A stretch of 64,000 nucleotides of DNA from NCBI RefSeq assembly GCF_003018255.1, contig NZ_CP027440.1. One strand, written 5' to 3'. The stretch is from Escherichia coli (GTDB taxonomy: Bacteria > Pseudomonadota > Gammaproteobacteria > Enterobacterales > Enterobacteriaceae). The position numbers were made by a program, and so were the translations under genes. Positions 19,483-22,702 of this stretch are shown here, piece after piece. Every line of letters starts with the position of its first letter. The first letter of the stretch is position 1. The notes under the pieces are model-generated. The model saw only the letters and a program-made list of their open reading frames with translations. It was not told the DNA's origin and ran no database searches.

Positions 19483-19699
19483 TAATTTGTCCTTTTCAGT
19501 CAGTGCAAAAGTCGAGTAAAAGGCATAACCTATCACTGTCATAGGTAAGAGCTTAGATCAGGTGATTGCCCTTTGTTTATGAGGGTGTTGTAATCCATGT
19601 CGTTGTTGCATTTGTAAGGGCAACACCTCAGCCTGCAGGCAGGCGCTGAAGATACCAAAGGGTAGTTCAGATTACACGGTCACCTGGAAAGGGGGCCAT

Positions 19700-19853
19700 T
19701 TTACTTTTTATCGCCGCTGGCGGTGCAAAGTTCACAAAGTTGTCTTACGAAGGTTGTAAGGTAAAACTTATCGATTTGATAATGGAAACGCATTAGCCGA
19801 ATCGGCAAAAATTGGTTACCTTACATCTCATCGAAAACACGGAGGAAGTATAG
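19700..19853. promoter_or_regulatory. ahpC promoter region, expected site of OxyR control (exact operator not resolved)
   Basis: Position upstream of ahpC; ahpCF is a known OxyR regulon member; I could not pin an OxyR tetranucleotide array by eye, so only the region is given. Confidence 0.3.
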
Positions 19854-20417
19854 ATGTCCTTGATTAACACCAAAATTAAACCTTTTAAAAACCAGGCATT
19901 CAAAAACGGCGAATTCATCGAAATCACCGAAAAAGATACCGAAGGCCGCTGGAGCGTCTTCTTCTTCTACCCGGCTGACTTTACTTTCGTATGCCCGACC
20001 GAACTGGGTGACGTTGCTGACCATTACGAAGAATTGCAGAAACTGGGCGTAGACGTATACGCAGTATCTACCGATACTCACTTCACCCACAAAGCATGGC
20101 ACAGCAGCTCTGAAACCATCGCTAAAATCAAATATGCGATGATCGGCGACCCGACTGGCGCCCTGACCCGTAACTTCGACAACATGCGTGAAGATGAAGG
20201 TCTGGCTGACCGTGCGACCTTCGTTGTTGACCCGCAGGGTATCATCCAGGCAATCGAAGTTACCGCTGAAGGCATTGGCCGTGACGCGTCTGACCTGCTG
20301 CGTAAAATCAAAGCAGCACAGTACGTAGCTTCTCACCCAGGTGAAGTTTGCCCGGCTAAATGGAAAGAAGGTGAAGCAACTCTGGCTCCGTCTCTGGACC
20401 TGGTTGGTAAAATCTAA
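19854..20417 (+). CDS. ahpC: Alkyl hydroperoxide reductase, peroxiredoxin subunit C
   Basis: 187-aa 2-Cys peroxiredoxin (FTFVCPTEL peroxidatic Cys, resolving Cys in EVCPA). Confidence 0.97.
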
Positions 20418-20481
20418 ATTTCCTTTGTCTTTCGCGCTACTAACTCCGGCGCGAAATACTTCGGAAATTCACCTAATTCTT

Positions 20482-20506
20482 CGGGTGCTGCGGCACCCGA
20501 TTTTCT
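20482..20506 (+). terminator. Intercistronic attenuator-like hairpin between ahpC and ahpF
   Basis: CGGGTGC-tgcg-GCACCCG stem-loop followed by ATTTTCTT; a second hairpin (TTCGCGC / GCGCGAA) lies ~45 nt upstream. Confidence 0.45.
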
Positions 20507-20587
20507 TCCCCGCACCATGATGCAAGCTGCATCCAGGTAGCCGCAGAGGCCGCTTGCATGATGATGTTTAAAGCCCAGGAGATAAAC

Positions 20588-22153
20588 ATGCTCGACACAA
20601 ATATGAAAACTCAACTCAAGGCTTACCTTGAGAAATTGACCAAGCCTGTTGAGTTAATTGCCACGCTGGATGACAGCGCTAAATCGGCAGAAATCAAGGA
20701 ACTGTTGGCTGAAATCGCAGAACTGTCAGACAAAGTCACCTTTAAAGAAGATAACAGCTTGCCGGTGCGTAAGCCGTCTTTCCTGATCACCAACCCAGGT
20801 TCTAACCAGGGGCCACGTTTTGCAGGCTCCCCGCTGGGCCACGAGTTCACCTCGCTGGTACTGGCGTTGCTGTGGACCGGTGGTCATCCGTCGAAAGAAG
20901 CGCAGTCTCTGCTGGAGCAGATTCGCCATATTGACGGTGATTTTGAATTCGAAACCTATTACTCGCTCTCTTGCCACAACTGCCCGGATGTGGTGCAGGC
21001 GCTGAACCTGATGAGCGTACTGAACCCGCGTATTAAGCATACGGCAATTGACGGCGGCACCTTCCAGAACGAAATCACCGATCGCAACGTGATGGGCGTT
21101 CCGGCAGTGTTCGTAAACGGGAAAGAGTTTGGTCAGGGTCGCATGACGTTGACTGAAATCGTCGCCAAAATTGATACTGGTGCGGAAAAACGTGCGGCAG
21201 AAGAGCTGAACAAGCGTGATGCTTATGACGTATTAATCGTTGGTTCCGGCCCGGCGGGTGCAGCGGCAGCAATTTACTCCGCACGTAAAGGCATCCGTAC
21301 CGGTCTGATGGGCGAACGTTTTGGTGGTCAGATCCTCGATACCGTTGATATCGAAAACTATATTTCTGTACCGAAGACCGAAGGCCAGAAACTGGCAGGT
21401 GCGCTGAAAGTTCACGTTGATGAATACGACGTTGATGTGATCGACAGCCAGAGCGCCAGCAAACTGATCCCGGCAGCGGTTGAAGGTGGCCTGCATCAGA
21501 TTGAAACAGCTTCTGGCGCGGTACTGAAAGCACGCAGCATTATCGTGGCGACCGGTGCAAAATGGCGCAACATGAACGTTCCGGGCGAAGATCAGTATCG
21601 CACCAAAGGCGTGACCTACTGCCCGCACTGCGACGGCCCGCTGTTTAAAGGTAAACGCGTAGCGGTTATCGGCGGCGGTAACTCCGGCGTGGAAGCGGCA
21701 ATTGACCTGGCGGGTATCGTTGAGCACGTAACGCTGCTGGAATTTGCGCCAGAAATGAAAGCCGACCAGGTTCTGCAGGACAAACTGCGCAGCCTGAAAA
21801 ACGTCGACATTATTCTGAATGCGCAAACCACGGAAGTGAAAGGCGACGGTAGCAAAGTCGTAGGTCTGGAATATCGAGATCGTGTCAGCGGCGATATTCA
21901 CAACATCGAACTGGCCGGTATTTTCGTGCAGATTGGTCTGCTGCCGAACACCAACTGGCTGGAAGGCGCAGTCGAACGTAACCGCATGGGCGAGATTATC
22001 ATTGATGCGAAATGCGAAACCAACGTGAAAGGCGTGTTCGCAGCGGGTGACTGTACAACGGTTCCGTACAAGCAGATCATCATCGCCACTGGCGAAGGTG
22101 CCAAAGCCTCTCTGAGTGCTTTTGACTACCTGATTCGCACCAAAACTGCATAA
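20588..22153 (+). CDS. ahpF: Alkyl hydroperoxide reductase, flavoprotein subunit F
   Basis: 521-aa product from [11 protein letters not shown]; redox CHNC and CPHCDG motifs, FAD/NAD GxGxxG motifs; track ORF starts 10 codons upstream. Confidence 0.96.
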
Positions 22154-22183
22154 GAAGAAGTAAGATTCACCTGCAATTGCTTA

Positions 22184-22214
22184 GCCGCCGGGGTCAAACC
22201 TGGCGGCTTTTTTA
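22184..22214 (+). terminator. Intrinsic terminator downstream of ahpF
   Basis: GCCGCCggggtcaaacctGGCGGC stem followed by T7 run, 30 nt after the ahpF stop; a palindromic GC-rich segment preceded by an A5 run (22222-22258) may serve the convergent uspG. Confidence 0.7.
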
Positions 22215-22273
22215 TTGCATTAAAAAGCCCTGCAGGGATGGCTCCGGGCAGGGCGGGAGACTTATTCTGGCAA

Positions 22274-22702
22274 TTAACGCACAACCAGCACCGGCAAATT
22301 GGCGTGGCGGATCACGCTCGAGGCGTTAGAACCCAACAGATGAGTTGAAATTGATGGGTTACGCGAACCAATCACTACTACATCTGCATCAAGTTCTTTC
22401 GCTAACTCGTTAACTTCATCCCGCACACTACCAAAACGGACATGTTGCTTAATGCGGGAAGGATCGATGGTGAAGTGGCTGACCATCGTTTGCAGACGTT
22501 CTTCTGCTTCATGTTGCAGATGCTCTTCAAAACGACGTACATCAGCGGCAAAACGGTGCAGGCTCAGGCTGGCTGACCCCGGTAGTACGTGAAGTAGATG
22601 AATAACTCCGTCATCCTGGGCGAGGAATTCAGCGTGGCGAATCGCTTTGTCGCTCAATTCCATTTCGAAAACATCCACTGGCATGATGATTGTTTTGTAC
22701 AT
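22274..22702 (-). CDS. uspG: Universal stress protein G
   Basis: 142-aa product from [11 protein letters not shown]; track ORF extends 11 codons upstream. Confidence 0.92.

Follow-up and report, generated by a model that had tools for sequence, protein, structure and literature searches.

The ahpC–ahpF spacer of Escherichia coli is modular: a polymorphic ERIC remnant, a terminator-type hairpin and an RNase III site

Introduction

In Escherichia coli, hydrogen peroxide at low levels is scavenged mainly by AhpCF, the subunits of which are required in unequal amounts; AhpC is a decamer, AhpF a dimer (as cited in PMC5371410). How can two adjacent cistrons supply them at different doses? We analyzed this question in a 64,000-nt stretch of E. 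coli DNA (contig NZ_CP027440.1, in the following called the window). Here, the ahpC stop codon ends at 20417 and the ahpF ATG begins at 20588, leaving a spacer of 170 nt (20418–20587), a length that an original prediction on this DNA had given correctly. The same prediction had proposed that inverted repeats in the spacer hold AhpF below AhpC levels, either by partial termination or by translational attenuation.

Layout and folding of the spacer

The operon has dsbG upstream on the opposite strand and uspG and rnk downstream. The window is 100% identical to E. coli (strain 104), and at least 80% of a 401-nt region spanning the spacer was found in 5421 of 5426 complete E. coli genomes. The features of the locus are compiled in Table 1.

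Table 1 Features of the ahpC–ahpF locus, with positions in the window
Feature	Position	Strand	Basis
ahpC CDS, 187 aa, upstream cistron	19854–20417	+	ORF list; RefSeq annotation of identical or near-identical E. coli loci
Hairpin 1, ERIC/IRU repeat with an internal deletion that fuses both ends of a 127-nt element	20418–20468	+	Fold; K-12 allele; copies
Hairpin 2, intrinsic-terminator-type, UCGGGUGC-UGCG-GCACCCGA (20481–20500) and U-tract AUUUUCUU (20500–20507)	20481–20507	+	Scan; fold; Term-seq; TRS; covariation
Hairpin 3, imperfect duplex of about 19 bp with RNase III cut at 20530	20516–20563	+	Fold; published site; EPEC 3′ end; conserved arms
ahpF Shine-Dalgarno AGGAG (20577–20581) and ATG (20588–20590)	20577–20590	+	Sequence; RefSeq ahpF starts
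ahpF CDS, 521 aa, downstream cistron	20588–22153	+	ORF list; translation starts MLDTNMK
Operon-final intrinsic terminator after ahpF, 10-bp stem and UUUUUUA	22183–22218	+	Terminator scan; TRS

All three predicted inverted repeats were found in the sequence where they had been placed, i.e., TTCGCGC (20431–20437) with GCGCGAA (20449–20455), CGGGTGC (20482–20488) with GCACCCG (20493–20499) followed by ATTTTCTT (20500–20507), and ATGCAAGC (20520–20527) with GCTTGCAT (20552–20559). These repeats are the cores of bigger hairpins, which we number hairpin 1 (20418–20468), hairpin 2 (20481–20500, 8 bp) and hairpin 3 (20516–20563, about 19 bp), respectively. Folding energies were compared with those of dinucleotide shuffles (200 for the whole spacer and for hairpin 3). 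The whole spacer reached a z-score of −4.16, and none of 200 shuffles folded equally well. For the single hairpins we obtained −18.8 kcal/mol and z −4.99 (hairpin 1), −16.6 kcal/mol and z −5.80 (hairpin 2), and about −21 kcal/mol and z −2.74 (hairpin 3, equalled by 3 of 200 shuffles). In partition-function folds, the arms of hairpins 2 and 3 had P(unpaired) ≤ 0.04 in all contexts tried that contained both arms. A scan of 19500–22500 with the Rfam 15 covariance models gave no match within 20418–20587, even at E ≤ 10. The three hairpins are thus real; each belongs to an already documented kind of element, and the spacer is modular.

The ahpF ribosome-binding site lies outside the hairpins

The third stem had been described as flanking the ahpF ribosome-binding region. 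What it encloses is a loop at 20528–20551, and hairpin 3 ends 14 nt before the AGGAG at 20577–20581. Probably the site was misplaced because the first in-frame ATG, at 20558, had been taken as the start codon. RefSeq AhpF (521 aa) starts at 20588 and not at 20558; outside Escherichia, ATGs upstream of the ahpF start are out of frame or have a stop codon next. An N-terminally extended AhpF beginning at 20558 was accordingly ruled out by frame and stop-codon analysis across genera.

In translational attenuation, spacer structure would mask the ahpF ribosome-binding site and directly lower AhpF translation. A weak stem, AUGUUUA/UAAACAU (20564–20589), does overlap the ahpF start codon, and in one folding context the mean P(unpaired) of the Shine-Dalgarno sequence was 0.23. 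The remaining contexts gave 0.62–0.80, however. As predicted accessibility (partition function) was hence inconsistent over the three contexts, i.e., 0.23–0.80, we reject masking as a supported mechanism. Moreover, the Shine-Dalgarno sequence is outside hairpin 3 as well as the other two hairpins, and the sole stem touching it folds no better than shuffled sequences (−3.4 kcal/mol, z −0.44) and is not conserved in other genera. The stable, conserved helix on the Shine-Dalgarno sequence or start codon that characterizes an attenuator sequestering the ribosome-binding site was not found in the spacer. We therefore regard attenuation as highly improbable.

Hairpin 2 coincides with a mapped 3′ end of ahpC

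A promoter scan found no sigma-70-like promoter in the spacer (20418–20587), which leaves an internal ahpF promoter without support and makes ahpF dependent on read-through. Hairpin 2 combines a GC-rich stem-loop, i.e., an 8-bp stem with six GC pairs and a 4-nt loop, with the U-rich tract AUUUUCUU that follows it, although this tract is interrupted (UUUUCUU).

Term-seq had been named as a check for an ahpC-only transcript, and published data contain such 3′ ends in three growth conditions. In the curated set of Adams et al. 2021, they map to MG1655 639668 (LB OD 0.4, M63) and 639670 (LB OD 2.0) (PMC7815308). These positions correspond to 20503 and 20505 in the window, the third U and the C of AUUUUC, respectively, and lie inside the hairpin 2 U-tract. 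An independent TRS terminus at 639664–639679 (R-bar 0.987–0.993) is classed, within the transcription unit, as an alternative primary terminus of ahpC (PMC10687069). All of these ends were determined in K-12, the sequence of which is identical to that of the window here. No Rho-termination region is listed near them in the published data. The TERMITe supplements have no ahpC entry, and in the RtcR paper ahpC appears only as a deletion mutant. With an ahpC-only 3′ end from both Term-seq and TRS at a terminator-like hairpin, the partial termination that had been predicted is supported.

Across 22 Enterobacterales, 94.9% of the cells in the hairpin 2 alignment were paired, and four of the eight pairs carried compensatory changes, as for example in CGGCUGC/GCAGCCG and CGGAUGC/GCAUCCG. 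None of 500 shuffles matched this, and slid registers used as control paired at just 30–44%. These compensatory changes across Enterobacterales argue that hairpin 2 is kept by selection. Pantoea, Erwinia, Providencia, Brenneria and Arsenophonus have short spacers of 68–79 nt in which a hairpin of this type is the sole structure, followed by 6–8 U and located 38–47 nt before ahpF. Among 69 proteobacterial ahpC–ahpF spacers, the shortest of which has 68 nt, 44 contained a terminator-like hairpin compared with 7–16 in shuffled spacers.

Hairpin 3 contains a published RNase III site

Hairpin 3 forms an imperfect RNA duplex of about two helical turns (about 19 pairs). An RNase III site between ahpC and ahpF, verified in vitro, has been reported at 639695 on NC_000913.3 (Gordon et al. 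2017, PMC5371410). Mapped through the MG1655 locus (L004), this is position 20530 in the window, within the 5′ arm of hairpin 3. In the same work, RNase III cleavage lengthened the half-life of ahpC mRNA, to about 14 min in the wild type versus about 6 min in an rnc mutant, while ahpF mRNA stability was unchanged (PMC5371410). Hairpin 3 is therefore not merely similar to the RNase III intercistronic sites known from ahpC–ahpF, pflB–pflA and yajQ (PMC5371410) but is the published ahpC–ahpF site itself. The difference is in the surrounding spacer, as the window has a 170-nt allele and the experiments used the 244-nt allele of K-12; the hairpin 3 sequence is identical in both. A condition-dependent 3′ terminus has moreover been mapped at 570458 in EPEC E2348/69 (PMC10687069), a strain that carries the 170-nt allele of the window. 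It is equivalent to 20560, i.e., one base past the 8-bp core stem and at the foot of the hairpin.

The range of hairpin 3 is restricted to the group of Escherichia, Citrobacter, Enterobacter, Leclercia and Superficieibacter. Across these genera its arms are 85–93% identical to E. coli, compared with 64–78% at synonymous sites and 29–74% in the apical loop. In a covariation analysis of 12 sequences, no hairpin 3 pair had changed on both sides (covariation term −0.13), and a few pairs are broken in single genera. The conservation could hence reflect a sequence-specific role and not structure alone; the hairpin 3 structure is supported by the enzymology and by the conservation of the arms next to a loop that varies, and only by these. 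A small ORF within hairpin 3 (MMQAASR*, from 20518) was ruled out because it is not conserved in other genera.

Hairpin 1 is a labile ERIC remnant

A variant alignment of E. coli spacers revealed three alleles, with 170 nt (window), 244 nt (K-12 MG1655) and 128 nt (O157:H7). They occur in 2113, 1764 and 1112 of the 5426 complete genomes, respectively. The 244-nt allele has about 74 extra nt within the loop of hairpin 1, and the 128-nt allele is devoid of hairpin 1. As all three alleles are common among E. coli genomes, hairpin 1 is dispensable.

ERIC/IRU elements are 127-bp imperfect palindromes that are co-transcribed with neighbouring genes and can affect mRNA stability (Delihas 2008, PMC2229807). 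In Yersinia, an ERIC makes the transcripts upstream of it less stable, in a manner that depends on the orientation of the element (De Gregorio 2005, summarised in PMC2229807). The stretch of K-12 that runs from the ahpC stop codon to GGAAAU has exactly the ERIC/IRU form, i.e., a 127-nt imperfect palindrome (−44.6 kcal/mol) that is intergenic and co-transcribed. It matches the ERIC-PCR primers ERIC1R and ERIC2 at 20 of 22 and 21 of 22 positions, respectively, and occurs in multiple copies (median 8, maximum 15 places per E. coli genome). Presence or absence and length polymorphism between strains, as seen at the ahpC–ahpF spacer, is likewise a feature of ERIC/IRU elements. The window retains the two ends of the element, which pair in the core stem UUUCGCGC/GCGCGAAA and the outer stem AUUUCC/GGAAAU of hairpin 1. 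In contrast to the K-12 copy, that of the window has 51 nt and is internally deleted; the ERIC core targeted by ERIC1R and ERIC2 had no match anywhere in the window. With the full element in the K-12 allele, we conclude that the window element is a deletion derivative rather than a full ERIC member. Internally deleted ERIC forms are reportedly described by Wilson & Sharp 2006. Our literature search found no paper connecting ERIC with ahpC.

The arms that form hairpin 1 also align with the ERIC copy between rpsB and tsf. In E. coli KS-NP019 this copy (L086 401–517) is 78% identical to the ahpC–ahpF copy and likewise lies between operon cistrons.

Full ERIC copies occupy the equivalent site in Citrobacter werkmanii, an Enterobacter sp., Superficieibacter and a MAG; in further genera this slot is nearly empty or filled by REP-like sequences. 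The ahpC 3′ UTR seems to be a place where small repeats repeatedly land or decay. Two loci from other Enterobacteriaceae (L012 1765–1865, L015 1765–1815) have REP/BIME-like palindromes, GCCGGATG...CCGGCCTAC, between the ahpC stop codon and the terminator. They recall the REP/BIME intercistronic 3′ stabilizers, which are repetitive palindromes in the same stop-to-terminator slot, whereas the E. coli element is an ERIC and the window spacer is without REP consensus. In Citrobacter sp. FP75 (L009) the slot is reduced to a 15-nt palindrome, AATTCGCTGCGAATT, resembling the outermost ends of the ERIC copy in Citrobacter.

A weaker K-12 TRS terminus lies at 639587–639595 (peak 639591, R-bar 0.50) (PMC10687069), just past the central ERIC stem-loop; the deleted allele of the window has no equivalent site. 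From this position, a full ERIC copy also generates or stalls an RNA 3′ end. We conclude that hairpin 1 is an evolutionarily labile, polymorphic repeat remnant and not a dedicated regulatory hairpin or designed part. At most, it is an extra 3′ stability element.

Might all three hairpins be neutral remains of repetitive elements, in a spacer that is not essential? For hairpin 1 this is true, given an ERIC remnant with three E. coli alleles and REP-like or other inserts in its slot elsewhere. Hairpins 2 and 3, however, were found in no fewer than 5421 of the 5426 E. coli genomes, exceed synonymous sites in conservation across genera, and fall on RNA ends and a cleavage site that have been mapped. 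For these two, absence of function is already refuted by the mapped 3′ ends and the RNase III data, and for the spacer as a whole we give such a reading hardly any credence.

RNase III processing and probable termination between ahpC and ahpF

Term-seq does not discriminate termination from trimming, and the RNase III site lies 27 nt downstream of the hairpin 2 ends. Processing could therefore account for part or even all of the ends at 20503 and 20505. It is conceivable that all transcripts are ahpCF, that RNase III cuts them in hairpin 3, with RNase E perhaps cutting further downstream, and that exonucleases then trim to hairpin 2, which would act as a protective barrier and cause no termination. 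The in vitro verified site so close to these ends, which stabilizes ahpC mRNA, is in line with such an exclusive role of processing, and so is the interrupted U-tract. Further 3′ ends at hairpin feet, i.e., at the K-12 ERIC core (639591) and at EPEC hairpin 3, show the pattern expected from exonuclease stalling. Nevertheless, hairpin 2 and its U-run are conserved with compensatory changes also in genera that have no hairpin 3, and the 6–8 uninterrupted U found there make it a canonical terminator. Furthermore, the rnc mutant still contains ahpC mRNA, with a half-life of 6 min. We consider it unlikely that processing is the only source of the ahpC 3′ end. From anatomy and conservation, we infer that factor-independent termination at hairpin 2, and not only trimming, may produce this end.

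Hairpin 2 shares with leaky intra-operon terminators a GC-rich hairpin and U-run between two cistrons, a mapped 3′ end, and an upstream product, here AhpC, that is required in excess. It differs in that the ahpC–ahpF 3′ end may arise partly from processing. Internal terminators setting stoichiometry have been described for sdhCDAB-sucABCD (cited by Conway et al. 2014, PMC4161252), and ABC-transporter operons contain internal terminators too (PMC9045158).

We hence propose, as the probable explanation, that the spacer is a three-module post-transcriptional uncoupler, by which one OxyR-controlled promoter yields far more ahpC than ahpF message. RNA polymerase that has started at the ahpC promoters would reach hairpin 2 with its 8-bp GC-rich stem and imperfect U-tract, AUUUUCUU, where judging from anatomy and conservation a fraction of the transcripts would terminate and the remainder read into ahpF. 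In the K-12 literature, the dominant RNA 3′ end of the locus is the one in the hairpin 2 U-tract (20503/20505). RNase III, as published, cuts the read-through ahpCF RNA inside hairpin 3 at 20530, with ahpC stabilized and ahpF unchanged. After this cut, 3′ exonucleases may trim the ahpC fragment back to hairpin 2, so that terminated and processed molecules would converge on one stable, hairpin-capped ahpC mRNA. AhpF would be translated only from the read-through or processed fraction, with its Shine-Dalgarno sequence unsequestered. Hairpin 1, finally, consists of fused ERIC ends lodged in the ahpC 3′ UTR; depending on the E. coli lineage, the element is full, deleted or absent. The experimental data behind this mechanism are from K-12 (244-nt allele) or EPEC rather than from the strain of the window.

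A leaky terminator together with RNase III uncoupling of the message halves thus offers a way from one promoter to unequal doses. Every component is already documented, with experimental mapping of each piece in K-12, and the finding is an ordinary one that was known before. The value of our analysis is mainly correct filing, and in addition the assignment of the first hairpin as a polymorphic repeat remnant outside the regulatory design. Compared with the original prediction, partial termination stands and translational attenuation falls, and it had missed that hairpin 1 is an ERIC remnant and hairpin 3 an RNase III site (PMC5371410).

Possible consequences of spacer variation

Beyond this mechanism, the three spacer alleles might create a natural expression polymorphism, hairpin 3 might act as a regulated switch, or both; taken jointly, we find this decidedly doubtful. 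Each allele is present in 20–39% of E. coli genomes and may cause ahpC mRNA stability and AhpC dosage to differ between lineages. Hairpin 3, the arms of which are near-invariant across Enterobacteriaceae genera, may not be just a passive substrate of RNase III. It could be under regulation, i.e., bind a protein or small RNA or be cleaved in a condition-dependent manner, and retune AhpC:AhpF under stress. The condition-dependent EPEC 3′ end at the hairpin 3 foot hints at such regulation.

Further observations at the locus

In the E. coli DH5alpha record NZ_CP045741.1 (L001 560–600), the 3′ arm of hairpin 2 is missing, and with it the whole of hairpin 3, the Shine-Dalgarno sequence and the opening codons of ahpF. 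A second, small deletion lies within ahpF, and the annotated AhpF protein differs. These deletions could be a genuine laboratory-strain lesion or an assembly error.

In the dsbG–ahpC intergenic region, positions 19616–19709 (+) of the window match Rfam STnc70 (RF02069) with 44.1 bits (gathering score 40). A Term-seq 3′ end at MG1655 638796 (+), 149 nt 5′ of ahpC (PMC7815308), corresponds to about 19705 and to the end of the STnc70 match. This element resembles a small RNA or an attenuated leader, placed 5′ of ahpC and on the same strand.

At the other end of the operon, the primary TRS terminus of ahpF maps to MG1655 641374–641384 (about 22209–22219 in the window) with an R-bar of 0.997–1.0 (PMC10687069). 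The ahpF terminator (22183–22218, +) is near the 3′ end of the convergent uspG, and TRS termini on the two strands lie within about 10 nt of one another, at 641374–641384 (+) and 641382–641391 (−) (PMC10687069). This suggests that the ahpF and uspG ends form a shared convergent terminator region.
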